Assembly: GCA_016841745.1 (NCBI GenBank)
Contig: JAENYO010000004.1
Coordinates: 82,026-146,025, forward strand
Direction of reading: 5' to 3'
Origin: Acetomicrobium hydrogeniformans
Lineage (GTDB): Bacteria; Synergistota; Synergistia; Synergistales; JAFGMB01
DNA: 64,000 nucleotides
Below are positions 5,404 to 62,504 of the stretch, piece after piece. The notes below the pieces were generated by a model, which was given only the letters and a program-made list of their open reading frames with translations, was not told where the DNA came from and made no database searches. Numbering within the stretch: position 1 is the first letter of the stretch; each line of letters opens with the position of its first letter. The translations under genes and the position numbers were made by a program.

Positions 5404-6681
5404 ATGATGCAGAAATATCGAGACAGGCGGTCAGTACCCATGTGGAAGGATGTTTCAGATGAAGACTGGAACAGCTGGAAATGGCAGATAGCCAACAGGA
5501 TAACCTCTGTGGAGAAACTAAGGCAGGTTATCAATATTTCAGATGAAGAGGCAGCGGTCATCGATAAAAGCCTGAACAGGCTCCGTATGGCCATAACTCC
5601 CTATTACGCTTCCCTCATGGATCCCGATGATCCGACCTGTCCTGTGCGTATGCAGGCTGTCCCGACGGTATCAGAAACTCATATAGCGGATTCGGACATT
5701 TGCGATCCCCTACACGAGGATGTGGATTCTCCCGTTCCAGGATTGACCCATCGTTATCCCGACAGGGGCCTTCTCCTTGTTACGGACCAGTGCTCCATGT
5801 ACTGCAGGCACTGTACCAGGAGGAGACATGCGGGAGAAACCGACAGGGCCTATTCACAGGAACAGATAGCTAAATGCATTGAATATGTGAAAAATACTCC
5901 CACATTCCGTGATGTTCTCCTTTCAGGAGGAGATCCATTCACCATTGATGAAGACCTTCTTGAATGGACCATTGCAGAGCTTTCGGCCATTCCCCATGTT
6001 GATTTTGTCCGTATAGGGACAAGGACTCCCGTGGTGTGTCCCCAGAGAGTGACGAAGAAGCTGTGCAGCATGCTTAAAAAATATCATCCCCTATGGATCA
6101 ATGTCCATTTCAACCATCCCAAGGAAATAACTCCGGAATCCACAAGGGCATGCAATATGCTGGCAGATGCAGGTGTGCCCCTCGGGAACCAGTCTGTTCT
6201 TCTTAAAGGCGTAAACGACTGTCCCCTCATCTTCAGGGAACTGAATCAGCAGCTGCTGAAAATAAGGGTAAGACCCTACTACATTTACCAGTGTGACCTT
6301 TCCGAGGGAATTGAGCATTTCAGGACTTCCATCGGCAAGGGTATCGAGATAATCGAGTTCCTCAGGGGCCATACCTCCGGCCTTGCTGTACCTTATTTCA
6401 TAGTGGATGCTCCAGGCGGCGGCGGCAAGATCCCCGTAATGCCCAACTACATCGTGTCCAGATCCGACAGGACGGTCCTTCTCAGGAATTACGAGGGTGT
6501 CATTACCACCTACAAGGAGCCGGAGGATAACCTGAGCAGGCCTGAAGAACTTTATCATCACGAAGAATATGTGGAGCGCCAGAAGGCTCTGTCCAACGAG
6601 GGACTGATCAAACTCTTCAATGGCCAGGAACTTTCCCTTGAACCATCCCATCTCGACCGGCACGAAAGGAACAAAAAATAA
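5404..6681 (+). CDS. kamA: L-lysine 2,3-aminomutase (radical SAM, PLP)
   Basis: 425 aa, near-collinear with my recollection of clostridial KamA. Shared motifs include WNSWKWQIANRI, LRMAITPYY, PLHEDVDSPVPGLTHRYPDR, the CSMYCRHCTRRR radical-SAM cluster motif, RPYYIYQCDLSEGIEHFRT and VDAPGGGGK. Confidence 0.95.
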   Translation: MMQKYRDRRSVPMWKDVSDEDWNSWKWQIANRITSVEKLRQVINISDEEAAVIDKSLNRLRMAITPYYASLMDPDDPTCPVRMQAVPTVSETHIADSDICDPLHEDVDSPVPGLTHRYPDRGLLLVTDQCSMYCRHCTRRRHAGETDRAYSQEQIAKCIEYVKNTPTFRDVLLSGGDPFTIDEDLLEWTIAELSAIPHVDFVRIGTRTPVVCPQRVTKKLCSMLKKYHPLWINVHFNHPKEITPESTRACNMLADAGVPLGNQSVLLKGVNDCPLIFRELNQQLLKIRVRPYYIYQCDLSEGIEHFRTSIGKGIEIIEFLRGHTSGLAVPYFIVDAPGGGGKIPVMPNYIVSRSDRTVLLRNYEGVITTYKEPEDNLSRPEELYHHEEYVERQKALSNEGLIKLFNGQELSLEPSHLDRHERNKK

Positions 6682-15977: not shown

Positions 15978-18098
15978 ATGTTTACATCGGGCCGCAGGTT
16001 TTCCCTTTATCTTTTTTTACTGGTAATGATCTTTCTTTCGTCTTCCCTTCTTCTGGTTTACCGGCCCCTTCAGGTAGAGCTGAAGATGAGCCTGGAGCAG
16101 AATTTCGCAGGTAAGGCAGACAATTCCCTCATAATCCTGGACAACTCCATCCAGGATTTCATCCAGAATGCCAAGACCCTTTCAAGCAGGACGGCTATCC
16201 GTCAGAAGGCCTATTCCTTCATCAGGGGAGAGGCATCTCTTGAAGATCTTGTTTCTTTTTCTCTTCCAAGATGGATAGAAGGTGTGGAGACTCTCAAGGG
16301 TGCTGTCTTTGCCACCAGGCGTATTGCCGGTAACGAGATAGCAAACTACGGAGAAAGACCCCCATCCCTGCCTTCTATGTCCACGAAATGCCGGGAGACA
16401 CTTGTTGAATATTTACGTTACGGCGGCAGAACAGGTGTCAGTGTCTGCACTCCCATTTACGAAGAGGATGATCTTCTCGGTTATGACCTGGTCCTCTTCG
16501 ATCTTTCTTCTGTTCTGGAGAGGATCCGGAAAGACAATATCCATTATCGTCTGATCCTCAAGGACGAACCTGTTTATGAAGATGCTCTTCAGCACCTGGG
16601 CAGTATGGTTGCAGAAAATGACCGGGATGAGGAGGTTATAGCCTTTTACAGGGCGGTGACCGGATCCGGACTTCTACTCAGGGCTTCCATACCGGGTGCG
16701 GAACTTTACAGTTACAGCAGGGCCCTTGCTCGAAAGTTCACCCTCTGGTTCGCTGCTTTTACGGTCCTCCTGACCCTTGGGCTGACCTTCCTTGTCCAGA
16801 AAAGGAATATGGGGCAGATAAGGATGATGAAGGACCTCCAGGTAAAGTTGTCCGAGAACGAAGCCCGGTTCCGGCTCCTTTTTGACAAAGGGTCCGATGC
16901 CATCCTTGTGAACCATATTTCCCAGGATGGCGAGGTGAGCACCTTCATAGAGGCAAACGACATTGCCTGCCAGTTCCTTGGCTATACACGGGAAGAGCTG
17001 CTTGAACTGACTCCACTCAATGTCCTTGTTCCTGAATATGAAAATACTGTTGCCATAATAAGGGAAAAACTGATGCTTAATGGAATGGCCCTGGCTGAAA
17101 TAACTGCCCTTGCCAAGAACGGAAAGAGAATACCCGGAGAGATAAATGCTCATCTATTCAACCTTAACGGCAAACCAACGGTCCTTTCCATAATCAGGGA
17201 TATTACAGAACGAAAGTCTTCGGAAAAAACGCTGAGAGATAGTGAGCGGCGCTATGCAAGCCTTTTTCATGAAAATGAGGCAGTTATGCTTCTTGTGGAT
17301 CCTGAAACAGGTCTTATCCGGGATGCTAACCCGGCCGCCTGTTCATTCTATGACTATGACTATGATGATCTCATCGGATTCAGATTCTCTGATATAACAC
17401 CTGGTACAGATAGTTCTGACCCTTCCGATCAGCTGAACCAGGTAAATCTGGGGACAAAAAAGCATTTTTATCTTGAAAATATGACGTCATCGGGAATAGT
17501 GCATAATGTTGAGATCTACAGTACAAAGCTTTTCTTTGATAACAGGTCTGTTCTTCTTCTTATGGTCCATGATATTTCTGAAAAAGTAAGGGCTGAGGAA
17601 AGGGCGAAAAGGCTGAATGATGAACTTCTGGCAATTTCCACCACAGATAAGCTGACGGGAGTAAACAACAGAAGGCATCTGGAAGAGATACTTCAATGGG
17701 AACTGAACAAATCAAGACGCTATGGTGATAACCTGTCACTGATAATGTTCGACCTTGACGGATTCAAGGCAGTCAATGATCGTTACGGACACTCCAGGGG
17801 AGACGAAGTCCTGAAGCAGATCGCCAGGAAATGTGTCTCCAATCTGAGGAGTTCCGACTTCTTCGGCAGATGGGGAGGGGATGAATTCCTGGTGATTACA
17901 CCTGTTTCGGAGGATAGTGCTTTATTTCTTGCGAAAAAACTGCTTATCATCATGAAGGAATCAGACCTTGGTGTTACGGCGAGTATGGGTGTAACTGGTT
18001 TCCACCAGGGAGACTCTTTAAGTTCCCTTCTTGAGAGGGCCGACAAGTCCATGTATGCTGCAAAGCAGCAGGGAGGAGACAGATATATCCTTTCCTGA
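15978..18098 (+). CDS. Membrane sensor diguanylate cyclase (periplasmic domain, 2 PAS, GGDEF)
   Basis: 706 aa. It has an N-terminal TM segment, a second TM near residue 255, PAS regions and RSSDFFGRWGGDEF (RxxD I-site plus GGDEF). Confidence 0.85.
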   Translation: MFTSGRRFSLYLFLLVMIFLSSSLLLVYRPLQVELKMSLEQNFAGKADNSLIILDNSIQDFIQNAKTLSSRTAIRQKAYSFIRGEASLEDLVSFSLPRWIEGVETLKGAVFATRRIAGNEIANYGERPPSLPSMSTKCRETLVEYLRYGGRTGVSVCTPIYEEDDLLGYDLVLFDLSSVLERIRKDNIHYRLILKDEPVYEDALQHLGSMVAENDRDEEVIAFYRAVTGSGLLLRASIPGAELYSYSRALARKFTLWFAAFTVLLTLGLTFLVQKRNMGQIRMMKDLQVKLSENEARFRLLFDKGSDAILVNHISQDGEVSTFIEANDIACQFLGYTREELLELTPLNVLVPEYENTVAIIREKLMLNGMALAEITALAKNGKRIPGEINAHLFNLNGKPTVLSIIRDITERKSSEKTLRDSERRYASLFHENEAVMLLVDPETGLIRDANPAACSFYDYDYDDLIGFRFSDITPGTDSSDPSDQLNQVNLGTKKHFYLENMTSSGIVHNVEIYSTKLFFDNRSVLLLMVHDISEKVRAEERAKRLNDELLAISTTDKLTGVNNRRHLEEILQWELNKSRRYGDNLSLIMFDLDGFKAVNDRYGHSRGDEVLKQIARKCVSNLRSSDFFGRWGGDEFLVITPVSEDSALFLAKKLLIIMKESDLGVTASMGVTGFHQGDSLSSLLERADKSMYAAKQQGGDRYILS

Positions 18099-18233
18099 TA
18101 GTGTGCCCCTCAGGATGATTTATATATAAAGTTTCTCGGGACCTTCTTGTTTCCACGGGTCCCAATTCTTTTAGTTCTTAAGACCTATATGTTTTAGTGC
18201 CATTGATATCTGTACTATGGTTCACAGGGGACT

Positions 18234-19988
18234 ATGCTCCCTATTCAGAATATCTATACTTTTAGCTGTGATAGAAATAAATTTATTCTGGAGGGACACA
18301 TGGAATCTGATATTAAGTTTTCCGTAAACGAAGTGGAGAAACAGGAAGGTAATATTTCCGTTACTCAACGTTTACTTATAGAGACTCTTCTAAATAACCT
18401 GCATGATGGTGTGAGGGTAATGGATCGAGAACTCAACGTTATCAGGGTAAACCAGGTGTCCATGAAAAAACACGGTTTATCTGAAGTTCCCGAGAAAGAA
18501 AAATGTTACAGGATCTTCAAAGGCAGAAGTGGTCCTTGTCAGGGATGTCCCTGTATTGTCAGTCTGGAGAAGGGGATCATGGAGAGAAGTATCATGGAGT
18601 GTAACAGTGTAAATGGTCCTACGCTGAATGAAGTTTCTTCTTTTCCAATTGTGGAAGAAGATGGCTCCATATGGGGCGTCATTGAAATTGCAAAGGACAT
18701 TACCGAACAGAAAACACTCCAGGACAAGCTCAAAAAGGAAAAGGAAAAATACAAGGAGCTTTTTGATAACAGCGATAATGCCATTTTCATCCAGATCCTG
18801 AAAGAGGGAAATCTTTCAGAGGAGCTCATGGAAGTGAACAGAATGGCCTGTGAACGTTATGGATACACAAGGGATGAGTTCCTGGCTATGTCGGCTATGG
18901 ACATAGCCATCCCTGAATACCACCCGCTGTTAAAGGAGATGCTAAGTAAAGTCTGGTCAGGTCAGAAGGTAGTGGAACAGCTCTATCACAGGAAACGAAA
19001 CGGTGAGGTTTTTCCTGTGGAGGTTGAAATAAGACCTTATGACCTGGAGGGCAGTGCCGGGATCATCTTCTTTGCCAGGGATATTTCAGGTAAATTTGAG
19101 ACGCGGGATGCTCTCGAGAGCATGGAGAGGCTTTATGCGAATCTTTTTCGGAATAATCACGCTGTAATGCTTGTTATCGATCCTGAAAAGGGAGATCTTA
19201 AAGATGCGAATCCAGCGGCCTGCCGTTACTACGGCTATTCACGGAAAGAAATGCTCCGGTTGAAAGGATGGGATCTCAATGCCCTTTCCGAAAAGGATCA
19301 GCAGGAGGCTATGAGCAAGGCCAAGTCTGGAGAGCAGGAGTTCTTTCAGTTCAAGCACAGGCTGAGCAATGGAGAAACAAGGGATGTTGAGGTCTATACA
19401 GGGCCCATAGAAATGGATGGGAAAAAATACCTTTATTCCATAGTTCATGATATTACAGAAAGAATACTGGCTGAAGAAGCTGCCCACAGGCTCACTACGG
19501 AACTTCTCAAGGCTTCCAGAAAGGATAAACTTACGGGTATTTTCAACAGGGCCTATTTTGAAGAAACCCTTATGCGGGAGATAGATAAGGCCAGGAGATA
19601 CCAGACATGTCTTTCCCTCATAATGTTCGATCTCGACAATTACAAGGAGATAAATGATTCCCTGGGTCACATGGCAGGAGATATGGTCCTTAAAAGGGTT
19701 GCCGAGTCAGTAAATACAAATGTTCGAAAGTCGGATTACCTTGTCAGGTGGGGAGGGGACGAATTCATGATCCTTACTCCCATGAGGCTGCCCAGTGCCT
19801 TGAAACTTGCCGAGAAACTCAGGGGCGTAATTGAAAAACTGGATTGTGGAGTGACTGCCAGTTTCGGAACGGCGGAATTCAGTCGGGAAGATACCATAGA
19901 TCAGCTAACCAGAAGGGTCGACAGAGCCCTTTACCAGGCCAAGGCAAAGGGAAAAAATACTATATCAACCTATGAAGAACCTCTCTGA
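18234..19988 (+). CDS. Cytoplasmic multi-PAS diguanylate cyclase (GGDEF)
   Basis: 584 aa. It carries RKSDYLVRWGGDEF. The C-terminal PAS-GGDEF half is paralogous to the preceding gene. An alternative start is ATG 18300, behind GGAGGG. Confidence 0.85.
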   Translation: MLPIQNIYTFSCDRNKFILEGHMESDIKFSVNEVEKQEGNISVTQRLLIETLLNNLHDGVRVMDRELNVIRVNQVSMKKHGLSEVPEKEKCYRIFKGRSGPCQGCPCIVSLEKGIMERSIMECNSVNGPTLNEVSSFPIVEEDGSIWGVIEIAKDITEQKTLQDKLKKEKEKYKELFDNSDNAIFIQILKEGNLSEELMEVNRMACERYGYTRDEFLAMSAMDIAIPEYHPLLKEMLSKVWSGQKVVEQLYHRKRNGEVFPVEVEIRPYDLEGSAGIIFFARDISGKFETRDALESMERLYANLFRNNHAVMLVIDPEKGDLKDANPAACRYYGYSRKEMLRLKGWDLNALSEKDQQEAMSKAKSGEQEFFQFKHRLSNGETRDVEVYTGPIEMDGKKYLYSIVHDITERILAEEAAHRLTTELLKASRKDKLTGIFNRAYFEETLMREIDKARRYQTCLSLIMFDLDNYKEINDSLGHMAGDMVLKRVAESVNTNVRKSDYLVRWGGDEFMILTPMRLPSALKLAEKLRGVIEKLDCGVTASFGTAEFSREDTIDQLTRRVDRALYQAKAKGKNTISTYEEPL

Positions 19989-34758: not shown

Positions 34759-35688
34759 ATGCCTGTCGATAGTATTCTCGCCAATCCCGTTTTTTTCAGA
34801 CATGTTCTTGAGGAGTTATACGATGGTGTATATATCGTGGATACTTCGAGAAAGATCCTCTTCTGGAACAAGGGTGCTGAAAGGATAACGGGATATACTT
34901 CAGAAAAAGTTCTGGGAAAATGCTGTGCGGATAATATCCTTATGCATGTGGATAACAGGGGAAAAAAACTCTGTCTGGAAGGATGTCCCCTTCATGAGAC
35001 ATTAAAGGATGGACTTGACAGGGAAGTATCTGTATTCCTCCATCACAGTGATGGGTACAGGGTTCCCGTTCTGGTAAGAATTTCTCCTCTCCGTGACAGC
35101 GAAGGAAGGATCATTGGTGCGGTGGAGGTGTTCAGCGATAACACCAAACTGGACAGATCCATGAGGACGATCCGGAAACTGGAAAAGGAAGCCTTTAGAG
35201 ATCCACTTACATCAGTCATGAACAGAAGGTATGGCCATACCTTCATTTCTCTTAAACTCCATGAAATGAAATCCCTTGAGCTGTCTCCACTGGGCCTTCT
35301 TTTCCTGGATATTGATCATTTTAAAAAATTTAATGATTTATACGGCCATCAGGTGGGAGATAATGTTCTTGTAATGGTGGCGGCTACTCTGAAAAACATC
35401 CTGAGGTCGGAAGATCTGGTGTGTCGATGGGGTGGAGAAGAATTTGTAATTGCCCTTCCTGAATCTTCGCTTTCCATGCTGGAGAATGTCGCAGAGAGGA
35501 TAAGGATACTGGTCGAATCTTCTATCTTTACTGAAAATATGGATAGTATGAGGGTTACCGTTTCCATCGGCGGATCTCTGGGAAGGGTCGATGATAGCGC
35601 AGATACCCTCATTAATCGTTCAGATCAGATGATGTACAGAAGTAAGCAGGCCGGGAGAAACATGGTTACTATTGAAGGGGTTTCCTGA
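34759..35688 (+). CDS. PAS-GGDEF diguanylate cyclase
   Basis: 309 aa with a PAS domain carrying CC-x16-C-x3-C, and RSEDLVCRWGGEEF (I-site plus GGEEF). Confidence 0.85.
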   Translation: MPVDSILANPVFFRHVLEELYDGVYIVDTSRKILFWNKGAERITGYTSEKVLGKCCADNILMHVDNRGKKLCLEGCPLHETLKDGLDREVSVFLHHSDGYRVPVLVRISPLRDSEGRIIGAVEVFSDNTKLDRSMRTIRKLEKEAFRDPLTSVMNRRYGHTFISLKLHEMKSLELSPLGLLFLDIDHFKKFNDLYGHQVGDNVLVMVAATLKNILRSEDLVCRWGGEEFVIALPESSLSMLENVAERIRILVESSIFTENMDSMRVTVSIGGSLGRVDDSADTLINRSDQMMYRSKQAGRNMVTIEGVS

Positions 35689-38553: not shown

Positions 38554-39552
38554 TCAGCCTCCGGGCGGATATGTTATGGCGACCCTGTGTCCGATCTTTG
38601 CAAAAAAGTCAAAGTGTGAATCCTCTTTCATCGGGTGGTTTTCTATAGCTTCCATACTCATGGACCAGATGTCCATGGGATTGGCGGGACCTGTGAGCTC
38701 TTCTGCCAGAGGACTGAATGTCTCATAAAATCGTATTGCTTCCTCTTCAGTTTCAGTTATGTACATAAGGGCATTCAGATTTCCCTGCTCGTGAATGTCT
38801 ATATCGAAGTTGCCCGGGAGGATAAGGTGCCTGTAGTAGAGAAGGAAAAGATGGAATTTCCCTATATCTTGGAAGAGCTGCAAGGGGTCATCATAAAATT
38901 CTTTTCTGACAAAATTCATATAGAAACGATCGGCATGCAGGAGTTTTAATGTGTCCGATGCCGGAGCTACCTTGTGCATATAGTGCACGAAGTCACAATA
39001 ATGAAGGAAAAGCACGTCGATCTCAAGAGATCCTGCTTCCATGCCCCTTTCAACCATCCATCCTTTTATCTCCTGAATGGAGGGGTGACGATCTGTTTGC
39101 CTGTTCTGGGGGAAGGTTTCCCTGATTTCCTTGATGATAGCCATCTCGTTGTATAGCCATCGGGGTTTCTTTGAAGGACTGATGGAGCAGATATCTCCGT
39201 TTTTTAACCCCGGGTAATAGGATAAACGTTGTCCCACATGGAAATTCTTCACGCCCCATCTCCCCACAAAGGATCTGTTCAGTAGCAGGGAAAGCCTGCA
39301 TTTCAGAAGTTCTTTTCCATGATCTTCGGCTGGATCTGCCGGGGTGGCATCATAATAGTATTCCCTGGCTATTTCAGTGAAAGCGTTTCTTCCTGCCGGG
39401 GTCAGAGAATAGGTCCCATTCTCTTTGACCAGAAGTTCTCTTCCCTTCAGGTCCTGCAGGAAAGTCGGGTTTTCTCCAGCCAGATCAACGAGTTCCTCAT
39501 TCCAGCAGGGATAGCCTTTGCTGAAAAGCAGTAAAACATTTTCCCGAGACAT
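38554..39552 (-). CDS. Hypothetical protein, no family recognised (possible N-terminal wHTH)
   Basis: About 332 aa. The ATG at 39552 lies 8 nt after GGAGGAG (the track start at 39561 is a GTG). Codon usage looks coding. I recognise no motif. Confidence 0.6.
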   Translation of the reverse strand: MSRENVLLLFSKGYPCWNEELVDLAGENPTFLQDLKGRELLVKENGTYSLTPAGRNAFTEIAREYYYDATPADPAEDHGKELLKCRLSLLLNRSFVGRWGVKNFHVGQRLSYYPGLKNGDICSISPSKKPRWLYNEMAIIKEIRETFPQNRQTDRHPSIQEIKGWMVERGMEAGSLEIDVLFLHYCDFVHYMHKVAPASDTLKLLHADRFYMNFVRKEFYDDPLQLFQDIGKFHLFLLYYRHLILPGNFDIDIHEQGNLNALMYITETEEEAIRFYETFSPLAEELTGPANPMDIWSMSMEAIENHPMKEDSHFDFFAKIGHRVAITYPPGG

Positions 39553-39714
39553 TCTCAACACTCCTCCGATCCATCTTATTCTTAAGGTTTATCAAGTCTC
39601 TTTCCAGACTATATGTAAGGAGTAGATCTGTCACTATATCTATTGCACAAAAATGATATTTGATCCAATATTCTCCTTTATTGCGGTAAAACCGGCTTAC
39701 CTCGCTCAGCTGTT

Positions 39715-40959
39715 TCAGGATTCCTCTTTTTCATGGAGTCCTGGACCAATGAATTTTTCCAGTCGAAGAGCAAGATACAGTTTCAGGGTGTCCCGGTAAT
39801 TCTTGATTTCTATGTTTCCTATCCTTTTGATCTTTTCCAATCTGTAGTTAAGTGTGTTTCTGTGAATGTGAAGTTCCCGGGCTGCGCTTACCAGAGAAAA
39901 GTTGCTTTCACACCATGTCAGGAAGGTCTGTCTGAGCTCTTCCCAGTCGTTCTGCTGTCTGAAAGCAGCCACGTTTCTCTGGATAAAACGATTTCTCAGG
40001 GCAGGCTGAAGAGATGCCAGGAGTTCTTCAATCCTGTAATCCTGAATATTGTATATACCTGGACCCTGGTTATATTTTTTACCAAGCTGTAAAGCCCGCC
40101 AGGCTTCCTGGTATGAATTGGATAATTCTTCCAGATTCCCGGCCATGGAGCCTATACCGATGGCTGCATTAAGATTCATCTTTGCCAGATCTTCCAGTAT
40201 CTGGCTGCAGGAAGAGGCGGTGTATCTGTAGATCGACCGCTCTCGTCCTGATGGGCTGTTTCCCACGGAATGAAGGATAAAATACTTGTTATTTCCTGTC
40301 ATTACGGAAATATCTGCCGGATCGGGAAAGGCCAGGCGTATCTTTTTCAGGATCTCATTCTTGGTCTTCTGTATAAGGAGTTCAGGGGTTTCTGTTCTGT
40401 CTTCCGAGCAGTCTTTTCGTATTTTTCTGGCATATCTCGCGAACTGGTAGAGATCGACAGCGATGGGGATATAGTGAAATGAAGGGTCAAATCCGAATTC
40501 CCTTGCCCTGGATAAAAGCATTCTACGATCCGATATACCGGAAATGTAATGGGAGATATCGTGAATTATTGTCTGCAGAGTCTCCTCCCTGTTTGTAGCG
40601 TATTCCTGAAGTTCTCTTTCGCGAAGAAGGATCTCAATCTGTTTCTTTACTATAAGCGCGAAGGGTTTTACGTTTACAGGTTTGCCGGTTATGGCCATAG
40701 AACCTACAACTTTACCGGTCATGGACTGAATAGGGTAAGTTACTCCAGGCAGGGTTCCCCTGAATTTCTGTGCTTCTGTTTCGTTAACAGCAGCACCCCG
40801 GTTATACCTGATCACATCAAGGGACTGCTCATGAAGGGAACCGAGTCTAAGGAGGTTGCTAGCTCCTATTATTATCCCTTCCGTATCTGTGATGATCACA
40901 TCATATCCTATAACTTCAGCTGTTGATCCAGCGATCTCGGCAGCCCACTTTGTAAGCAT
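39715..40959 (-). CDS. CdaR/PucR-family regulator (diacid-recognition-like N-domain, C-terminal PucR HTH)
   Basis: 414 aa. The N-terminus reads VIGYDVIITDTEGIIIGASN and the C-terminus reads AARELHIHRNTLNYRLEKIKRI. It is divergent from grdE. Confidence 0.8.
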   Translation of the reverse strand: MLTKWAAEIAGSTAEVIGYDVIITDTEGIIIGASNLLRLGSLHEQSLDVIRYNRGAAVNETEAQKFRGTLPGVTYPIQSMTGKVVGSMAITGKPVNVKPFALIVKKQIEILLRERELQEYATNREETLQTIIHDISHYISGISDRRMLLSRAREFGFDPSFHYIPIAVDLYQFARYARKIRKDCSEDRTETPELLIQKTKNEILKKIRLAFPDPADISVMTGNNKYFILHSVGNSPSGRERSIYRYTASSCSQILEDLAKMNLNAAIGIGSMAGNLEELSNSYQEAWRALQLGKKYNQGPGIYNIQDYRIEELLASLQPALRNRFIQRNVAAFRQQNDWEELRQTFLTWCESNFSLVSAARELHIHRNTLNYRLEKIKRIGNIEIKNYRDTLKLYLALRLEKFIGPGLHEKEES

Positions 40960-41252: not shown

Positions 41253-42539
41253 ATGAGGTTGGAACTTCATAATGCTTTAGTGAAGGAGATTCAGTGGGGT
41301 GAAAAGACCTCCCTGAAGGATAATGTCCTTTATGTCAACAGGGAAGAAGCCATCGAAGTTGTTGCGGCAGATGAAAATTTTGCTGATGTACAGCTTGAGC
41401 TGGCCCGTCCCGGGGAAAGTGTCAGGATAATACCTGTCAAGGATGTAGTGGAACCAAGGATCAAGCTGGAAGGAGGGACTTCTTTCTTTCCAGGTTTCTG
41501 TGCTCCCATGGAACCGGTAGGCGAGGGTGTAACCTTTGTTCTCAAGGGTGCTTCTGTAATTACCTGCGGTCCCATAGTAGCCTTCCAGGAAGGTTTTATT
41601 GACATGAGCGGTCCCGCCAGTCCCTATAATCCCTTTTCAGAGACCTTTAATGTCGTAATAGTAGCAGAACCTGTTGCAGATCTTGAAAAACATGCCTACG
41701 AGAGATCCCTCAGGGAAGCAGGGCTGAAACTTTCCGTTTACCTTGCTGACCAGTGCAAGGGGACAAAAGCCGATAACGTCGAGGTCTTCGACAAGGGTTC
41801 CATAGTTGAGGAAAACAATAAATACCCGGACCTCCCCAAGATAACCTATTTCTGCATGTCCATTACCCAGGGGCTTCTCCACGATACTTTCCTCTACGGA
41901 GCTGACATGAAGTCCATAGTTCCCACTCTGGTCCATCCCAATGAGATACTTGACGGAGCAATGGTCTCAGGAAACTGCGTTTCCGCCTGTGACAAGAATA
42001 CAACCTTCCATCATGTGAACGATCCTATCGTTCTTGAGCTCTACAAACGTCATGGCAAGGAGATTAATTTCATTGGTGTTATTCCAACTCTTGAAAGCAC
42101 AGTGCTGGCTGGCAAGGAGAGAACCACCTGGATGAATGCCAATCTGGCCAGACAGCTCGGAGCAGATGGTGTAGTTATTTCGGAAGAAGGCTATGGCAAT
42201 CCGGATACCGACCTTTGCATGAATGCCAAGAAGTGTGAAGACTGGGGCATTAAAACTGTAGTTATTTCAGATGAGGCAGCAGGAGTTGATGGTTCCAGCC
42301 AGGGTCTTGCAGATGCGACACCTGAAATGGACGGTTTTGTTTCAGCCGGAAATGTTAATGAGATGATAGAAGTTCCGGCCATGGATAAGATCATAGGATT
42401 CCCGGAAGCCATCGCTTATCTCTCCGGAGGAGCGTCGGACAGTCTGCGTGAGGATGGTTCCATGTATGTTGAACTCCAGTCGATCATTGGTTCCACCAAT
42501 GAGCTGGGATTCAGCAAACTAGGCTGCGAATGGGTCTAG
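41253..42539 (+). CDS. grdE: Glycine/sarcosine/betaine-type reductase component B proprotein (alpha/beta, pyruvoyl-forming)
   Basis: 428 aa. The N-terminus is MRLELHNALVKEIQWGEKTSLKDNVLYVN. An Asn-Cys dipeptide at residues 241-242 (TGC at 41976-41978) sits in the expected self-cleavage position. There is an AAGGAGG RBS. Confidence 0.85.
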   Translation: MRLELHNALVKEIQWGEKTSLKDNVLYVNREEAIEVVAADENFADVQLELARPGESVRIIPVKDVVEPRIKLEGGTSFFPGFCAPMEPVGEGVTFVLKGASVITCGPIVAFQEGFIDMSGPASPYNPFSETFNVVIVAEPVADLEKHAYERSLREAGLKLSVYLADQCKGTKADNVEVFDKGSIVEENNKYPDLPKITYFCMSITQGLLHDTFLYGADMKSIVPTLVHPNEILDGAMVSGNCVSACDKNTTFHHVNDPIVLELYKRHGKEINFIGVIPTLESTVLAGKERTTWMNANLARQLGADGVVISEEGYGNPDTDLCMNAKKCEDWGIKTVVISDEAAGVDGSSQGLADATPEMDGFVSAGNVNEMIEVPAMDKIIGFPEAIAYLSGGASDSLREDGSMYVELQSIIGSTNELGFSKLGCEWV

Positions 42540-42561: not shown

Positions 42562-43872
42562 ATGACCTACAGGGTTGTTCATTATATAAATCAGTTTTAT
42601 GCAGGAATGGGTGGAGAAGATACAGCCCATGTACCCCCATCATCCCGGGATGGGATAGTGGGTCCCGGCCTTCAGCTTCAGAACCTGCTTCAGGGAGAGG
42701 CAGAAGTCATAGGTACGGTTATCTGCGGTGACAGTTATTACGGTGAAAATATGGAAAAAGCCCAGGCTGAGTGTATTGAAATGATAAAGGCTTTCAAGCC
42801 TGATATGCTTATTGCCGGTCCTGGTTTCAATGCCGGACGTTATGGCGTTGCCTGCGGTGATATCTGTGCAGCTGCGGGAGAAATGCTTGGAATCCCTACA
42901 GTTACAGCCCTTTATGGGGAAAATCCCGGTGTCGAAATGTACCATAAAAAAACATACATTGTCGAAACCAGTGACAGCGCCAGGGGTATGAGAGATGCCC
43001 TGTCCAGAATGGTGACTCTAGCTTTGAAACTGCTGAAAAAAGAGAAACTCGGTACTGCCCGCTTTGAAGGCTATATCCACAGAGGTATCCGTAAAAGCTT
43101 TTTCCATGAAAAGTCGGGGGCAGAAAGAGGAGTTGATATGCTTCTCAAGAAGATCCGGGGAGAAGCTTTTGAAACAGAACTTGAAATGCCGGTATTCAAA
43201 AAGATAGATCCGGCAGCTCCCATAGCAGACCTGAGTAAGGTTACTATTGCCCTTTGTACTTCCGGCGGTATTGTTCCCTTTGGTAATCCTGATCACATAA
43301 GGGTTTCCTCTGCTGAAAAATTCGGCAAATACAATATTTCCGAACTCAAAGACCTTACATCGGAAAATTATGAGTCCATCCATGGAGGTTATGACAGGGT
43401 TTATGCGAACGATAACCCCGATGTAGTCCTTCCCCTTGATATTATGCGAGAGATGGAAAAAGAAGGGGTTTTCGCCAAACTTCATGATTTCGTTTACTGT
43501 ACTACCGGAACCGGTACAGCAGTAGCCAATGCCGAAGGTTTCGGCCAGGCCATCGGCAAGGAACTGAAAGAGGCTGGTGTTGATGCCGTCATTCTGACAT
43601 CCACCTGAGGTACCTGTACTCGATGCGGTGCATCGATGGTTCGGGAAATAGAGAAAGAAGCAGGTATCCCTGTAGTCCAGATAGCAACAATAGTACCTAT
43701 AATGCTCACAGTTGGAGCTAACAGGATAGTTCCCGGTGTAGCTATTCCTCATCCGGTAGGAGATCCTGAATCAGGACCCGAAGGAGACAGGAAGAAGAGA
43801 AGAGAGCTCCTTCAGAGGGCTTTCAAGGCCATGTCTACAGAAATAAAGGAACAGACCATATTTAAAGACTAA
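42562..43872 (+). CDS. grdB: Reductase component B selenoprotein subunit; in-frame UGA (43606-43608) read as selenocysteine
   Basis: Track ORFs 42562..43608 and 43636..43872 are in the same frame. The junction reads ILTST-U-GTCTRCGASMVREIEKEAGIPVV, which is the UxxCxxC selenoprotein B motif. A hairpin starts 12 nt downstream of the UGA. Confidence 0.9.
43620..43636 (+). promoter_or_regulatory. Candidate SECIS hairpin for grdB
   Basis: UCGAUGC-GGU-GCAUCGA forms a perfect 7-bp stem with GGU at the apex. It starts 12 nt after the UGA. Confidence 0.65.
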
Positions 43873-43943: not shown

Positions 43944-44420
43944 ATGGGCAAATTAACAGGGAAAAAACTGCTTCTCCTGGGAGAAAGAGACGGAGTTCCA
44001 GGGCCAGCTATGGAAGCGTGTCTTAAAGACACAGGAGCAGAGATAGTATTTTCAGTTACGGAATGTTTTGTCTGAACTGCGGCAGGTGCTATGGATTTGC
44101 AGAATCAGCAGAGAATCAAGGATGCAGGCGATAAATATGGCAAAGAGAACCTGGTAGTTGTACTTGGTTCTTCAGATGCCGAGGGTGCCGAGATCTATGC
44201 TGAAACCGTTGCAAACGGAGATCCGACTTTTGCAGGTCCACTGGCCGGAGTCCAGTTGGGACTCGCCGTATATGACATTTTTGAAGATGAAATTCGCAAC
44301 GAAGCTGATGAAACCGCGTGGGAAGAGAATATCTCCATGATGGAGATGGTTCTGGATACTGACGGTCTCTGTGCAGCAGTCAAATCAATGAGAGAAGAGT
44401 TCAGTCAATTTTCTATCTAA
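43944..44420 (+). CDS. grdA: Selenoprotein A of glycine-type reductases; in-frame UGA (44073-44075) read as selenocysteine
   Basis: The ATG at 43944 follows AAGGGGGTG. The product begins [62 protein letters not shown]..., which contains the CxxU motif. The track lists only the post-UGA part (44091..44420). Confidence 0.92.
44077..44102 (+). promoter_or_regulatory. Candidate SECIS stem-loop for grdA
   Basis: CUGCGG...UUGCAG forms the lower stem (including G-U pairs), with a short upper stem and a GGUGCUA apical loop. It was folded by eye only. Confidence 0.4.
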
Positions 44421-44444
44421 AGGTTTCCCCCCTTTGGATATTCC

Positions 44445-44467
44445 GGGCGGGGCTTTCTGCCCCGTCC
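44445..44467 (+). other. GC-rich intercistronic stem-loop between grdA and grdX, with no U-tract
   Basis: GGGCGGGGC-uuucu-GCCCCGUCC forms 9 bp, one of them a G-U pair. It is followed by ACCGGAUAAAAAUG. Confidence 0.5.
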
Positions 44468-44507
44468 ACCGGATAAAAATGTATGTGTCTGAAGGAAGTG
44501 TTCACAG

Positions 44508-44852
44508 TTGAAAGTTATAAGCAACAATCCTTTTGTTCTGAAGAAGATAGAAGATAATCATCCCGTCAGCGGAAATCCCCTGGACGTGCTTCTGGAAGTC
44601 AGGAAGTTTCTTGAATCGGGTCATAAACTTGTGACTATGCCTTTGCCTGCAAACCAGAGGCTTTTCATGAATCCCTACAGATCCATCCTTGTAGATAAAC
44701 CTTCAAAGGACATGGATATGAAGGGACTGGTTCTTCTGGAAAAAGCAGTGGAGAGATTCCGCTCACAGGTTTTTTATGATGATCAGGGAGCAGATGGAGA
44801 TTTTGCTCTTATGGACCTGGAACAGGTCATGATCTCCATGAAGATGGTATGA
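44508..44852 (+). CDS. grdX: GrdX-family protein
   Basis: 114 aa. MKVISNNPFVLKKIED...VTMPLPANQRL resembles small GrdX proteins encoded in grd operons. The start is TTG, behind GAAGGAAG. Confidence 0.65.
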   Translation: MKVISNNPFVLKKIEDNHPVSGNPLDVLLEVRKFLESGHKLVTMPLPANQRLFMNPYRSILVDKPSKDMDMKGLVLLEKAVERFRSQVFYDDQGADGDFALMDLEQVMISMKMV

Positions 44853-44923: not shown

Positions 44924-46447
44924 ATGAGGTTATCTTCAATTCTTGCACCGACAACCAGGAATAATCCGGCAAAAGTAAAGGATCAGCGACTTATAAGGCT
45001 TGTAAAGGCCGGATATGCTGTTTATGACAATTCTGCTGAAGAAATACTGCTCACTCCTTTGGGCATGGGGTTACTCGCGCAGGTTTCAGGAAAATTAAAA
45101 GAAACCTTCGAAAACAGAGGTGCTCAGGAAATATCGGGTAACCATAATGAAGCTGCATTCGCTTTGATGGTAAGGGTACTGAAAACACAAGATCAGCTTC
45201 CGCTGATCCTTATGGAGGAAAAGAACCGGAATATCCAGCTTACAGCTTTTTCCGCTGTGGAAGACAATGTTTCGACACAAATGGAAACTTGTCTTCAGAC
45301 CTGCCGGGAAGCTTTGCTTTCCCGGGGTATGAGGATCTTCTCATTGAAAGAGGTCATTTCCAGCGGAGAGAGGATCGCTATGGTTGTAGAAGGAGATAAA
45401 AAGGCCCTTGGATCAAGGGACGGTCTTGTCTGCCCGTCATGTGGATGGAAGGGGTTCACCTCTTCTCCCATGGGCAAAAACACCGTCTCTCATGGAGGAA
45501 AAGAAGAACTTGAAGAAATATATACTCCGGGAGCTACAACCATTGTTGAACTATGCAGGCAGCTGGATCTGCCCCCTTCTCAGACATTAAAGACCATGTT
45601 CTATGCGATGGATAATGGAACCGGTCAGCTTGTGGTTGCTCTGATGAGAGGGGACAGGGATATTTCCCTTGAGAAGCTTTCTTTTTACCTTGGAGGGGTA
45701 AAACTCAGGAGAGCAACTGAGAACGAGCTGAAAGATGCCATAGGGGAAGTCGCCGGATTCTGTGGTCCCATAGGACTGCCGGAAGAAATAACAGTAGTAG
45801 CAGATGAAAGCGTTGAGGGTGCAATAAACCTGGCAGCAGGTGCCAACAAACCGGATTTCCATTTCAGAGGTGCATGCTGGGAAAGGGATTTCAAAGCCGA
45901 TATGGTGCGCGATATAGCCGCCTTCGGAAAGGATACCCCCTGTCCTTCCTGTGGAGAAATGATGGATAAGGGCTATTTTACAGAGCTAGGTGCTTTCTAT
46001 TTTACAAGACATCTTTCTGAAGACTATCCTTCTTTAAATTACATCAATGAAAACAGGGAAAAATGCTATCCCAAGGTATGGAGGGGAACCATAGATCTGG
46101 AACAGTTATTGCTCTCCGTCATGGGTTATGGTTCTGACAATCTGGCCGGGTGGTCTGCCTTTGACATTCATCTTATCGCTGCTCTTTCCAGGGAAGATGC
46201 TCTTTTTGCTGAAGTTGAGGACTTATACGATCGTCTTTCATCAAAAAACTTAAGAGTGCTCTTTGATGATCGGGATAAAAAGATAAACTCGAAACTGGAT
46301 GATTCCGTAGAAATGGGAATCCCTGTAAAAGTTCTGGCTGGAAAGGATACTTCAGGTGGTATGGAACTGGAAGTCTGGACCAGTGAAAGAGAGGGTATTA
46401 TCTTAAGCCCCGAAGACCTGGAAAAACATCTGTTCACTTTCAAATAG
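44924..46447 (+). CDS. Prolyl-tRNA-synthetase paralog retaining the INS/YbaK-type editing domain and anticodon-binding domain, with degenerate class II catalytic motifs
   Basis: The ATG at 44924 lies 8 nt after AGGAGG. An alternative start is ATG 44849, overlapping the grdX stop. MRLSSILAPTTRNNPAKVKDQRLIRLVKAGY aligns to the bacterial ProRS N-terminus. The INS region reads TLKTMFY...LVVALMRGDRDISLEKL...GFCGPIG...AAGANKPDFHF. The C-terminal part, LRVLFDDRDKKINSKLDDSVEMGIPVKVLAG, is an anticodon-binding domain. The motif 2 (FRDE...R) and motif 3 (GxGxGxxR) positions are not conserved. Confidence 0.75.
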   Translation: MRLSSILAPTTRNNPAKVKDQRLIRLVKAGYAVYDNSAEEILLTPLGMGLLAQVSGKLKETFENRGAQEISGNHNEAAFALMVRVLKTQDQLPLILMEEKNRNIQLTAFSAVEDNVSTQMETCLQTCREALLSRGMRIFSLKEVISSGERIAMVVEGDKKALGSRDGLVCPSCGWKGFTSSPMGKNTVSHGGKEELEEIYTPGATTIVELCRQLDLPPSQTLKTMFYAMDNGTGQLVVALMRGDRDISLEKLSFYLGGVKLRRATENELKDAIGEVAGFCGPIGLPEEITVVADESVEGAINLAAGANKPDFHFRGACWERDFKADMVRDIAAFGKDTPCPSCGEMMDKGYFTELGAFYFTRHLSEDYPSLNYINENREKCYPKVWRGTIDLEQLLLSVMGYGSDNLAGWSAFDIHLIAALSREDALFAEVEDLYDRLSSKNLRVLFDDRDKKINSKLDDSVEMGIPVKVLAGKDTSGGMELEVWTSEREGIILSPEDLEKHLFTFK

Positions 46448-46565: not shown

Positions 46566-47927
46566 ATGGAACAGAAACGAGAAAGTTGGGGTAGCCGCTT
46601 TGGCTTTATTATGGCAACAGCTGGTTTTGCAATAGGACTTGGGAATATATGGAGATTTCCCTACATGGTAGGAACCAATGGAGGCGGAGCCTTTCTGGTT
46701 GTTTACCTGGCCATCTGTTTTACTATATGCGTACCTCTTTTTATCGCAGAGATCAGTCTTGGGAGAAAGACACGGCTCAATCCCATTCAGGGAATGCAGA
46801 AACTGACCCGCAAAGGCAGTCCCTGGGTAATGATCGGCTGGATAGGAGCCATCGCATGTGTTCTTCTGATGTCCTATTACCTGATGGTCATTGGCTGGAT
46901 GGCAGCATATTTTGTCAAGGCTCTTACAGGGGTCTTTGCAGGAGCAACACCCGAACAGACAAGTGTTATGTATGACACTTTTGTTTCTGACCCGCTACAG
47001 GTGGGTGCTTATACTCTTGGAGTTGTTGTGGTACTTGGTGTTATCGTTACCCGGGGTCTCAAAGACGGAGTCGAGAAGGCCTGTAAATGGATGCTTCCAG
47101 CTCTTATGATAATGCTCCTTATTCTGGCAGCAAAATCTCTCATGATGTCTCCCCAGGTTGAAGGTGCGGCAGGTGCTATGGCCGGCCTCAAATGGTATGT
47201 AACCCCTGATTTCTCAAAGATAAATGGCGGTGTGGTCCTTGCAGCACTGGGTCAGGCCTTCTTCTCAATCGGCATTGGTATAGCATGTGCCTTTGTATAC
47301 GGCAGCTATCTTGCTCCCGATTCAGATCTTCCCGCAGATGCTACAATTGTTATCGCCCTTGATACGGGAATTGCTGTTGTAGCAGGACTGGTTATCTTTC
47401 CGGCCCTCTTCTGCTTTGGAATGGATCCCCAGGCTGGTCCCGGTCTTCTTTTCAAGACCATGCCTGTTATTTTCGGCCAGCTTCCTGGTGGAAGTATTTT
47501 TGCCTCCATGTTTTTCTTCCTTGTGGTTCTGGCAGGTCTCACATCCGGTATGGGCTACCTTGAAGCTCCAGCAGCGACCTTTTCCGAGCTTTTCGGGATC
47601 AGCAGGAAAAAGTCAGTATGGGGTATTCTTGCCATTATGTATATCCTCGGTATTCCTTCCATTCTTTCACAGGGTCCATGGAGTCATATACTGATCTTTG
47701 GAAGGAATTTCTTTGACCTTGCAGACTACATATCCGGCAATGTCATGATGCCGGTGGATGCCCTTCTCATTGCCATTTACACTGCCTTTGTGTGGAAGTT
47801 TGCCAACTTCAAAGATGATAGCAACGTGGGAGCAAAGACCTTCAGGATCGCCAATTCATGGAAGCCCTTTGTTGTCGCTGTTGTTCCTGTGGCCGTTTTG
47901 ATAATCATGATAACAGCCATTTTTTAA
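46566..47927 (+). CDS. Neurotransmitter:sodium symporter (NSS/SNF) family transporter
   Basis: GFIMATAGFAIGLGNIWRFPYMVGTNGGGAFLVVYL is the NSS signature. 453 aa. Confidence 0.9.
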   Translation: MEQKRESWGSRFGFIMATAGFAIGLGNIWRFPYMVGTNGGGAFLVVYLAICFTICVPLFIAEISLGRKTRLNPIQGMQKLTRKGSPWVMIGWIGAIACVLLMSYYLMVIGWMAAYFVKALTGVFAGATPEQTSVMYDTFVSDPLQVGAYTLGVVVVLGVIVTRGLKDGVEKACKWMLPALMIMLLILAAKSLMMSPQVEGAAGAMAGLKWYVTPDFSKINGGVVLAALGQAFFSIGIGIACAFVYGSYLAPDSDLPADATIVIALDTGIAVVAGLVIFPALFCFGMDPQAGPGLLFKTMPVIFGQLPGGSIFASMFFFLVVLAGLTSGMGYLEAPAATFSELFGISRKKSVWGILAIMYILGIPSILSQGPWSHILIFGRNFFDLADYISGNVMMPVDALLIAIYTAFVWKFANFKDDSNVGAKTFRIANSWKPFVVAVVPVAVLIIMITAIF

Positions 47928-60641: not shown

Positions 60642-62504
60642 ATGACGTTATGGAAGGGAAGACGAACCTGGGTAGATCTTTCCAGCGGTGATATCAGGAA
60701 TGAAGATCTTCCCGAAAGTTACGCCCGGAAATGGGGAGGTATGAGGGGCCTTGCCCTGCCCATCCTCATGGATAAACTTTCTCCGGAGACTGATCCCCTG
60801 GGATCTGACAATCCACTGATCATAGCCTGCGGACTTCTGAATGGGCTTCCATTTCATGGACTGAATCGTTACGGTGTATATGCCAGAAGTCCACTGACAG
60901 GTGCCTATGGTGAATCAGAGGCGGGAGGATTCTTCGGACCAGGTCTGAAGGGGCAGGGAATAGAAGCAATTGTAATGGAAGGACAGGCTGAAAAACCGGT
61001 ATATCTCTGGGTGGAAAATGGAAAGGTCGAGATCAGGGATGCCAGTCACCTATGGGGACTTGAGACTGGTCCTGCCATGGATATATTGAAGAAGGAGCAT
61101 GGGAAGATCACGGCAATAATGATAGGACCAGGGGGAGAGAATCTGGTACGTTATGCCTGTATCCTTAATGATCTTCATCATGCTAACGGCAGAACCGGTA
61201 TGGGTGCGGTCATGGGTTCAAAAAAGATCAAAGCGGTAGTATGTCCCTATCCAAAGGCGCAGGAACCCTGGGACAGGGAATTGCTGAAACAGATGCATGA
61301 AGCCTACAGGGGATGGAAGGAAATACCCTTTTACTGGGGACTGAGGGAATTCGGTACAACGGCCACCGTTGAGGGCAATAACGATTCCGGAATGCTTCCA
61401 ACAAGAAACTTCAGAGAAGGAGTTTTCGAAGGGGCCTCAAAGGTTGGCGGCAGGTATATGAATGAAAATATGCTCATAGACCGTTATGCCTGTTTCAGTT
61501 GTGCCGTCAGGTGCAAAAGAGTGGTCGAGGGAGGGAAGCATAATGTGGACCCCGCCTATGGTGGTCCTGAGTACGAGACAATAGGTGCTTTTGGCCCTCT
61601 CTGCGGAATAGATGATCTGGAAACCATAGCCAAGGCCCATGAACTCTGTAACCGCTTCGGACTGGACACCATTTCCACCGGGGCAACCGTTGCATGGCTT
61701 ATGGAATGTGTGGAGGAAGGCATTATGTCCCCTGAAGAGGCCGAAATAATGGGTTTTGGAGATGAAGAAGGTCTGCTCCCTCTCATAGAGAAGATATCAC
61801 GGCGGGAAGGGCTCGGAAACCTCCTTGCAGAGGGTGTGAAGAGGGCTTCCGAAAGGGTTGGCAAGGGAAGTGATCGTTTTGCCCTTCACGTAAAAGGGCA
61901 GGAACTTCCCCTTCATGATCCCAGGGGAAAGTACGGGCTTGCCCTGGCTTATGCCCTTGCCCCGGGTGGAGCCGATCATATGCAGTTTCCCCATGATCCT
62001 CTTTTTTCAAAAGAGGGATCCATTCCAATGGAAGCGGTTAAATGTCTTGGAGTTAACGAAGCTCTCTCTCCTCTCAGTCTTGACGAGAAAAAGACCCTTG
62101 CCGTGACCTATCTCTGGCTCAGCTGGAGCATGATGAATCACCTCGGGATGTGCTTCTTTGTGTTTGCTTCAAGGGGTTATTTCCCCCATACCCTGGTCCC
62201 GTCCCTTATGGAATCAGCTCTTGGGTGGAAAACATCACTCTGGGAACTTATGAAGATGGCTGAAAGGGGTCTGACCGCTACTCGATTAGTGAATCTCAGG
62301 CTTGGTTTAAGCGAAAAGGATGACATCCTGCCGGCCAGGCTCTTCGAACCGATTCCAGAAGGCCCACTGAAGGGGAAGAGCGTCCCGGAAGATGAATTCT
62401 GGAAAGCAAGGGAGCTTTATTACAGATTGCTGGGTTGGGACGAGGATGGTATCCCATCCGAAACAAAGATGATAGAGCTGGGTCTGAATACCGATAAAAT
62501 CTAA
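60642..62504 (+). CDS. Aldehyde:ferredoxin oxidoreductase family (tungstopterin) enzyme
   Basis: 620 aa. The N-terminal AFOR_N domain reads VDLSSGDIRNEDLPE...GGMRGLA. The Fe-S/pterin ligand region is DRYACFSCAVRCKR. Confidence 0.9.
   Translation: MTLWKGRRTWVDLSSGDIRNEDLPESYARKWGGMRGLALPILMDKLSPETDPLGSDNPLIIACGLLNGLPFHGLNRYGVYARSPLTGAYGESEAGGFFGPGLKGQGIEAIVMEGQAEKPVYLWVENGKVEIRDASHLWGLETGPAMDILKKEHGKITAIMIGPGGENLVRYACILNDLHHANGRTGMGAVMGSKKIKAVVCPYPKAQEPWDRELLKQMHEAYRGWKEIPFYWGLREFGTTATVEGNNDSGMLPTRNFREGVFEGASKVGGRYMNENMLIDRYACFSCAVRCKRVVEGGKHNVDPAYGGPEYETIGAFGPLCGIDDLETIAKAHELCNRFGLDTISTGATVAWLMECVEEGIMSPEEAEIMGFGDEEGLLPLIEKISRREGLGNLLAEGVKRASERVGKGSDRFALHVKGQELPLHDPRGKYGLALAYALAPGGADHMQFPHDPLFSKEGSIPMEAVKCLGVNEALSPLSLDEKKTLAVTYLWLSWSMMNHLGMCFFVFASRGYFPHTLVPSLMESALGWKTSLWELMKMAERGLTATRLVNLRLGLSEKDDILPARLFEPIPEGPLKGKSVPEDEFWKARELYYRLLGWDEDGIPSETKMIELGLNTDKI

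Follow-up and report, generated by a model that had tools for sequence, protein, structure and literature searches.

A catalytically degenerate prolyl-tRNA synthetase paralog of Synergistota, in part linked to selenoprotein reductase genes, as a candidate trans-editing factor for tRNAPro

A stretch of 64,000 nucleotides from the Acetomicrobium hydrogeniformans assembly GCA_016841745.1 was analysed as a whole (hereafter, the window). At 44924-46447 on the forward strand it carries a gene for a 507-aa protein, which we call pseudo-ProRS. The protein is a full-length, catalytically degenerate paralog of prolyl-tRNA synthetase (ProRS) that has kept both the INS editing domain and the anticodon-binding domain (ABD), as the original prediction, made from the letters alone, had proposed. 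With a probability of roughly 0.65, we regard pseudo-ProRS as a relic of a bacterial-type ProRS retained as an ABD-anchored enzyme for trans-editing of Ala-tRNAPro. The gene and its parts are as follows.

44924..46447, + strand: pseudo-ProRS gene, encoding a degenerate class II core, the INS editing domain and the anticodon-binding domain (Pfam, NCBIfam, AlphaFold2 (AF2), Foldseek)
44924..45493, + strand: N-terminal part of the degenerate class II core, residues 1-190; GPTHEE block and motif 2 deleted, CxxC pair C170/C173 (alignments)
45494..45898, + strand: INS (YbaK-like) editing domain, residues 191-325; PF04073 at 83 bits, lowest ratio of nonsynonymous to synonymous substitution (dN/dS), 0.09-0.18
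45899..46153, + strand: C-terminal part of the degenerate core, residues 326-410; second CxxC pair C340/C343, proline loop and motif 3 replaced (alignments)
46154..46447, + strand: class IIa anticodon-binding domain, residues 411-507 (VLFDDR ... GIP), followed by the stop codon (PF03129, alignments)

Translation of the open reading frame (ORF) gave zero internal stops. A Shine-Dalgarno sequence, AGGAGG, lies 8 nt 5' of the ATG at 44924, and this codon is favoured as the start because M1 matches the conserved ProRS N-terminus and most relatives do not have the extension that a more upstream start would add. Such an ATG, at 44849, shares bases with the grdX stop (ATGA); a start there is unlikely and would lead to a product of 532 aa. 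A Pfam search of the whole protein detected tRNA_edit (PF04073) at residues 201-320 (E 2e-23, 83.2 bits vs. a gathering score of 25.5) and HGTP_anticodon (PF03129) at residues 418-488 (E 3.7e-8), and no tRNA-synt_2b, the class II core. The NCBIfam equivalog models for ProRS, TIGR00409 and PRK09194, reached 148.6 bits (cutoff 558) and 97.8 bits (cutoff 306.7), respectively, and aligned only from about residue 190 on. When all window ORFs were searched by phmmer with a Chloroflexota ProRS as the query, the pseudo-ProRS gene was the sole match and no other proS was found; ARAGORN detected no tRNA genes in the window.

The protein was aligned with E. coli K-12 ProS (L080) and with Chloroflexota ProRS. 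It proved collinear with bacterial-type ProRS, its N-terminus being equivalent to MRTSQ...LMLRAGMI of the E. coli enzyme, and the proposed loss of the GPTHEE segment and disruption of motifs 2 and 3 were borne out. The block bearing GPTHEE was gone, approximately 18 residues of motif 2 (FRDE.R.R.G..R..EF; ATP-binding) were deleted, DTGSIGG was missing, and the proline-binding loop RGIEVGHIF was replaced. In place of motif 3, GCYGIGVTR (class II GxGxGxxR), the protein had WRGTIDLEQLL, in which the motif Arg is missing. The GPTHEE segment, motif 2, the proline loop, and motif 3 were missing in all 55 of the 55 full-length Synergistota family sequences compared, the window protein included, and the catalytic Lys and His of the editing domain were kept in 55/55.

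The residues of the INS domain were intact, as predicted for the Lys, GFCGP, and GAN. The equivalences between the window protein and E. coli ProS were I207 = I263, L210 = L266, K223 = K279 (codon at 45590-45592), D294 = D350, and H313 = H369 (codon at 45860-45862); GAN at residues 306-308 and GFCGP were also kept. The catalytic Lys (K279 of E. coli ProRS, K46 of YbaK), which is K223 here, and the GxxxP loop G278-P282 were invariant in the family. Across E. coli ProS, Chloroflexota ProRS, and the family, the invariant positions (E. coli numbering) were T257, P258, I263, L266, T277, K279, R299-G300-D301, K308, D350, G362-A363-N364, H369, R377, and D378. This INS domain is embedded in a ProRS-shaped protein of 507 aa and is not a free-standing single domain. 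The ABD had been described as complete, and both the PF03129 match and the alignments agreed. Two CxxC pairs, C170/C173 and C340/C343, were invariant in the family; some Chloroflexota ProRS have them as well, and the E. coli enzyme does not. Their conservation points to a zinc site that may persist at the base of INS.

An AF2 model built on a 30-sequence family alignment had a pLDDT of 89.5 and a pTM of 0.84. The best PDB matches of this model in Foldseek were full-length bacterial ProRS structures, the top one being E. faecalis ProRS 2j3l (E 6.5e-41, TMq 0.82 over the full length, 19% identity). By this model, the eroded core is still predicted to fold as a class II core that places INS and the ABD as they are arranged in ProRS.

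Pseudo-ProRS belongs to a family found across Synergistota. The protein search yielded 39 clusters, 29-92% identical, in which tRNA_edit was present and tRNA-synt_2b missing (Synergistales, Synergistota, Aminobacterium); canonical ProRS entered the same search only at ~28% identity. A genome scan of species representatives added 49 further Synergistota loci of the degenerate family and none from other phyla, with Synergistaceae, Thermovirgaceae, Aminiphilus, Dethiosulfovibrio, and 'Bacterium M3-1' among the taxa. The loci from outside Synergistota mostly had at least one canonical synthetase motif, as judged by strict regular expressions, and were treated as ordinary ProRS; locus L075 was left out since its match was not one continuous ORF in the translated frame. 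In public records, family members are labelled 'prolyl-tRNA synthetase', 'YbaK/EbsC family protein', or 'hypothetical protein', and the first of these labels can lead inferences on metabolism and essential genes astray.

When the window gene was compared pairwise with relatives of 92%, 72%, and 63% identity, dN/dS was 0.16-0.22 overall. By region, INS had the lowest values (0.09-0.18), residues 1-190 ranged over 0.17-0.48, and all regions were below 0.5. Thirty-nine alignment columns were invariant over 30 family sequences spanning down to 29% identity. The low dN/dS in every region argues that the family is functional and under purifying selection, not decaying, and that the synthetase site was lost long ago.

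The family is not uniform. In a clade from termite-gut Synergistaceae (L042-L056, e.g., L047:10001-11251) the protein is short, ~415 aa, and has no ABD. At several of these loci, ORFs for hisC and for a HisZ-like protein, itself a paralog of an aminoacyl-tRNA synthetase (aaRS), were read by eye just upstream. The complete chromosome OY762654.1, which holds the 92%-identical relative of the window gene, has two pseudo-ProRS copies: L010, which is linked to grd genes, and L029, which is unlinked, 32% identical, and degenerate too. DAOTIQ01 also has two copies, L025 and L041, both in a dnaK context; this may reflect strain mixing in a metagenome-assembled genome.

The canonical ProRS of Synergistota is of the archaeal/eukaryote type and has no INS. 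At L047 and L049, such an enzyme of 480-490 aa, with RPTSET, an intact motif 2, and the C-terminal ...AKAY, is encoded 4-8 kb from the pseudo-ProRS gene. The L047 gene (L047:14899-16365(-)) matched TIGR00408 proS_fam_I with 536 bits vs. a cutoff of 437. Its close homologues (67-100% identity), all with PF00587, PF03129, and PF09180, are named proline--tRNA ligase in Synergistaceae, Synergistales, Thermanaerovibrio velox, Synergistes, and Aminobacterium. At the level of the genus, Aminobacterium has both proteins, ProRS P0214 and pseudo-ProRS P0034. The features of a pseudo-synthetase were thus found together: the aaRS fold is kept, the motifs are lost, and a working ProRS coexists with it (in that genus and on contigs L047 and L049). 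A jackhmmer search of the fetched flanks found no stand-alone INS homologues; these flanks comprise ~20 kb per genome and are uninformative for whole genomes.

In species with an INS-less ProRS, Ala-tRNAPro is known to be handled by an INS homologue acting in trans; INS has no intrinsic tRNA recognition and relies on the ProRS ABD, which reads G35/G36 ~70 A away (PMC3973320). The dependence of INS on the ABD would account for the preservation of the whole scaffold, and not of INS alone. On this basis, we picture pseudo-ProRS as a relic of bacterial-type ProRS that can neither activate proline nor charge tRNA and that probably survives as a stand-alone proofreader. The ABD would dock tRNAPro via its anticodon, the degenerate class II core would be a mere rigid scaffold spacing INS and the ABD, and INS would hydrolyse Ala wrongly attached to tRNAPro, both the deacylase activity and the specificity for Ala being predicted. 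The need for such a proofreader would come from the working Synergistota ProRS, which is of the archaeal/eukaryote type without INS. This would suffice for keeping an INS-bearing relic, and a link to Stickland chemistry is unnecessary. Within a grd operon, proofreading capacity would rise at times when the Ala and Pro pools are unbalanced by amino-acid fermentation, which is also the logic of PrdX in the proline-reductase clusters of clostridia. A tRNAPro-directed trans-editing factor, as first suggested in the original prediction, is the best reading, given the kept INS and ABD and the lost charging site.

Several points weigh against it. The canonical ProRS that had been expected elsewhere was found in the phylum, in one genus (Aminobacterium), and on two contigs of another clade (L047 and L049); this coverage does not extend to the window's own genome. 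The short clade without an ABD indicates that anchoring by this domain is not universal in the family. The two copies on OY762654.1 mean that the grd-linked copy may hold a specialised and not a general role. Finally, pool imbalance as the reason for the operon linkage is a conjecture.

Editing of Ala-tRNAPro is a textbook case of quality control with two known forms: INS acting in cis within ProRS, and small free-standing INS homologues. With the cis-editing enzymes (E. coli ProS, E. faecalis 2J3L), pseudo-ProRS shares the domain order, with INS set between the places of motifs 2 and 3 and the ABD at the C-terminus, as well as the fold and the INS residues. Unlike them, it has no synthetase site and could edit only in trans, on tRNA charged by the archaeal-type ProRS. 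ProXp-ala is a single domain of ~160-170 aa. It shares with pseudo-ProRS, as does PrdX, the niche (a ProRS without INS) and the predicted substrate, whereas pseudo-ProRS, a pseudo-synthetase of 507 aa, has an ABD and would be expected to read the anticodon; ProXp-ala reads G72/A73 of the acceptor stem (PMC3973320). PrdX is likewise tied to a Stickland reductase cluster (prd), in parallel with the grd-linked pseudo-ProRS. It had been brought up as a precedent, and in a loose sense it is one: one paper lists PrdX as an Ala-tRNA deacylase (PMC4510536), and another names it among the genes of the prd cluster (PMC10564238). YbaK, a Cys-tRNAPro deacylase without tRNA specificity of its own (PMC3973320), has the tRNA_edit fold and the catalytic Lys in common with pseudo-ProRS; the latter differs in having the INS-type hydrophobic pocket and His, and it scored 34 bits with the YbaK equivalog model, the cutoff of which is 153.

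The truncated ProRSx of Streptomyces, ~200 aa with only the ABD, is encoded beside mistranslating tRNAProX genes and was interpreted as an inactivation (PMC10404621). Like pseudo-ProRS, it is a derivative of bacterial-type ProRS without catalytic function, but in pseudo-ProRS the INS, the core scaffold, and the ABD are all kept under selection. HisZ is an aaRS paralog without aminoacylation activity that coexists with the working synthetase and was recruited as a regulator of ATP phosphoribosyltransferase. While HisZ went to metabolism, pseudo-ProRS keeps its tRNA-handling domains, which points to a role within translation. If the trans-editing reading is true, pseudo-ProRS would represent a third form of Ala-tRNAPro editing, a synthetase body stripped of its synthetic site that presents INS and the ABD to tRNAPro. 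It would also be a natural experiment backing the need of INS for the ABD in tRNA selection, and a record of displacement, in which charging passed to an acquired archaeal-type ProRS and the original enzyme stayed on as a proofreader.

The neighbours of the pseudo-ProRS gene in the window are listed below (Sec, selenocysteine).

39715..40959, - strand: CdaR/PucR-family regulator, divergent; beside the grdE-like gene in both grd-linked clades
41253..42539, + strand: GrdE/GrdG-like subunit of substrate-specific protein B; NCBIfam sarcosine_GrdG 535 bits, below the cutoff of 780
42562..43872, + strand: GrdB/GrdF-like selenoprotein B, Sec TGA at 43606-43608; TIGR01918 various_sel_PB 467 bits
43944..44420, + strand: selenoprotein A (GrdA), Sec TGA at 44073-44075; NF040748 174 bits, cutoff 130
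44508..44852, + strand: GrdX family protein; NF038093 74 bits, cutoff 40
46566..47927, + strand: sodium-dependent SNF-family transporter, final gene of the same-strand run; NF037979 140 bits
47966..48003, + strand: strong terminator-like hairpin of 17 bp, 10 of them GC pairs, with a T-run after it (terminator scan)

On the same strand, the order is grdE-like, grdB-like (Sec), grdA (Sec), grdX, pseudo-ProRS, and SNF transporter, with gaps of 22-119 nt, and the sole strong terminator-like hairpin of this run comes after the SNF gene. The placement of the gene inside a selenoprotein reductase operon, as originally proposed, is borne out by strand, gaps, and terminator position, and the pseudo-ProRS gene appears to be co-transcribed with grdX and the transporter gene. 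Between grdA and grdX (44421-44507) there is a GC-rich hairpin, ccgggcggggctttctgccccgtccaccgg, without a T-run and unflagged by the terminator scan; it could be an attenuator or a processing site.

Both protein-B subunits scored highest on sarcosine models, yet below the NCBIfam equivalog cutoffs for glycine, sarcosine, and betaine. The fluoroacetate reductase of the Cloacibacillus far operon was considered as the identity of the reductase and rejected (FarE 197 bits vs. a cutoff of 675); the paper on the fluoroacetate reductase names no ProRS-like gene, which also counts against this identity. No grdC, grdD, or thioredoxin-system genes were found among the larger ORFs scanned, a set that small genes such as trxA would escape. 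A 335-aa protein without an NCBIfam match (window 38554-39561, - strand) is encoded between a comB-like phosphatase gene and the CdaR gene in all loci of clade A, the group of grd-linked loci to which the window belongs.

Neighbourhoods of all loci were compared by tblastn and clustering of flanking ORFs. The gene was adjacent to grd genes in 14 of the 58 Synergistota loci examined, in three gene orders. Clade A comprises the window and relatives down to 46% identity (L004-L006, L010-L012), with the order comB-like, hypothetical gene, cdaR, grdE, grdB, grdA, grdX, and pseudo-ProRS; L012 starts at the pseudo-ProRS gene and was counted as grd-linked by shared downstream synteny only. Clade B (36-40% identity; L008, L014, L015, L017, L022, and L026) has the order cdaR, grdE, grdB, and pseudo-ProRS, without grdA and grdX; the rest of the neighbourhood is different, and GrdE and GrdB share ~70% identity with those of the window. 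On the Dethiosulfovibrio contig L078, the pseudo-ProRS gene is followed by grdA. The remaining clades, about three-quarters of the loci, have contexts unrelated to grd. In Thermovirgaceae, pseudo-ProRS lies directly upstream of genes, read from the sequence, for a small Gly/Pro-rich protein, dnaK, a dnaJ-like gene, and clpB, and the dnaK-dnaJ-clpB synteny is kept in ~17 species (L025-L041, L045, L051; e.g., L040:10001-18165). Another clade has a GntR regulator and a saccharopine-dehydrogenase-like gene, and in Aminobacterium the gene stands between those for serine dehydratase (sdaAB) and a PpiC isomerase.

The proposed tie to the selenoprotein reductase is thus supported in part, by the 14 loci in their three arrangements, and the others do not share it. 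With linkage at this frequency, pseudo-ProRS does not appear to be intrinsically a component of reductase operons; since the linkage recurs in three gene orders, functional coupling may nevertheless exist in a subfamily.

In clade B, the neighbourhood includes HypD, a glycyl-radical enzyme matching the trans-4-hydroxy-L-proline dehydratase equivalog (1191 bits vs. a cutoff of 1100). HypD and its activase are co-oriented with CdaR, and all three are divergent from grdE-grdB-pseudo-ProRS (L008:639-3909 (-); L014, L017, L022, and L026). This hints at a tie of the reductase to proline or hydroxyproline catabolism, and the recurrent placement of pseudo-ProRS beside the selenoprotein reductase and HypD is a testable lead on the reductase.

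Among the alternatives, the one that survives best is that the grd-linked subfamily consists of specialised deacylases for non-Ala tRNAPro, charged with the reductase substrate, a proline analogue that builds up while this substrate is used (hydroxyproline, sarcosine, or another secondary amine), or glycine. We consider it doubtful. It would account for the linked and the unlinked copy on OY762654.1 and for eight positions that are fixed in 13/13 grd-linked sequences and different elsewhere, four of which are in INS (T205, R263, V276, and F279, of which F279 belongs to the GxxxP loop). The subunits GrdE and GrdB, nearest to reductases of a secondary amine (sarcosine) and below every substrate-specific cutoff, the divergent HypD and activase genes of clade B, and the SNF transporter in the operon also fit such a role. 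However, the residues known to set specificity for Ala (E. coli I263, L266, K279, and H369) are all unchanged, the clade B genomes have a single copy in the scan, so that this copy must cover the general role, and bootstrap support for a single grd-linked clade was 9% with all columns and 71% with core columns only.

Just as tentatively, the grd-linked subfamily could be seen as a fidelity factor devoted to a novel type of Stickland metabolism, in which proline or some other secondary amine may be the substrate of the GrdE/GrdB-type enzyme. The task of pseudo-ProRS would then be to deacylate tRNAPro that carries this substrate or its analogue, or Ala once proline is drained.

It is improbable that pseudo-ProRS is an accessory or regulatory part of the reductase system, for example, one that senses the charging of tRNAPro or an amino acid, without a role in quality control. 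The adjacency to grdE and grdB in 14 loci with three arrangements and the apparent co-transcription with grdX and the transporter gene would suit it; the many loci in other contexts (dnaK-dnaJ-clpB, GntR with the saccharopine-dehydrogenase-like gene, sdaAB-ppiC), the strongest constraint being on the deacylase catalytic residues, and the destroyed proline pocket of the core argue otherwise. For the related suggestion that the protein was recruited to bind an amino-acid-like ligand we found no support, since the proline pocket of the synthetase is lost and conservation is centred on the deacylase site.

A decaying, functionless remnant that came to lie in the operon by accident is very unlikely: every synthetase motif is gone, but the frame is intact in ~55 species, dN/dS is as low as stated above, the 39 columns are invariant, and the AF2 fold is confident. 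Least credible of all is a divergent yet active ProRS, for although the protein is collinear with ProRS end to end and has its fold, motif 2 is deleted, the motif 3 Arg is gone, the proline-binding loop and the TxE segment are missing, and a bona fide family-I ProRS exists in the phylum.

A second degenerate family, of 523 aa, was encountered in Anaerolineae (Chloroflexota) via P0056, a match in the first protein search (P0056, P0241-P0359; locus L081:10001-11587); it is larger than the Synergistota one. Its members have tRNA_edit and HGTP_anticodon and no tRNA-synt_2b, and some are labelled 'proline--tRNA ligase'. As in Synergistota, motif 2, the proline loop, and motif 3 are degenerate, K279, H369, and the DDR motif are intact, and the motif 3 remnant W..DL..LL resembles the Synergistota one. 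The Anaerolineae family differs in being less eroded, with motif 2 not deleted and the motif 3 Arg kept, in belonging to another phylum, and in having no grd genes in the single context inspected. Monophyly of the two families had a bootstrap support of 99.5% with all columns, 100% with the degenerate core columns, and 1% with INS and ABD columns. The grouping rests entirely on the degenerate core columns and allows no conclusion on a single or multiple origin. In the literature searched, no description of the Synergistota or the Anaerolineae degenerate family was found, which is not proof of absence; the nearest was ProRSx. If both act as editing proteins, which is a tentative reading, the two families together would be a branch of the INS trans-editing superfamily that is guided by the anticodon and has so far gone unrecognised.

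Elsewhere in the window, genes were found for a lysine-2,3-aminomutase-like radical SAM enzyme, three PAS-GGDEF proteins, and a tungsten-type aldehyde:ferredoxin oxidoreductase (5404-6681, 15978-19988, 34759-35688, and 60642-62504), along with several M20 and M29 peptidases and amino-acid transporters. This content fits an amino-acid-fermenting member of Synergistota.

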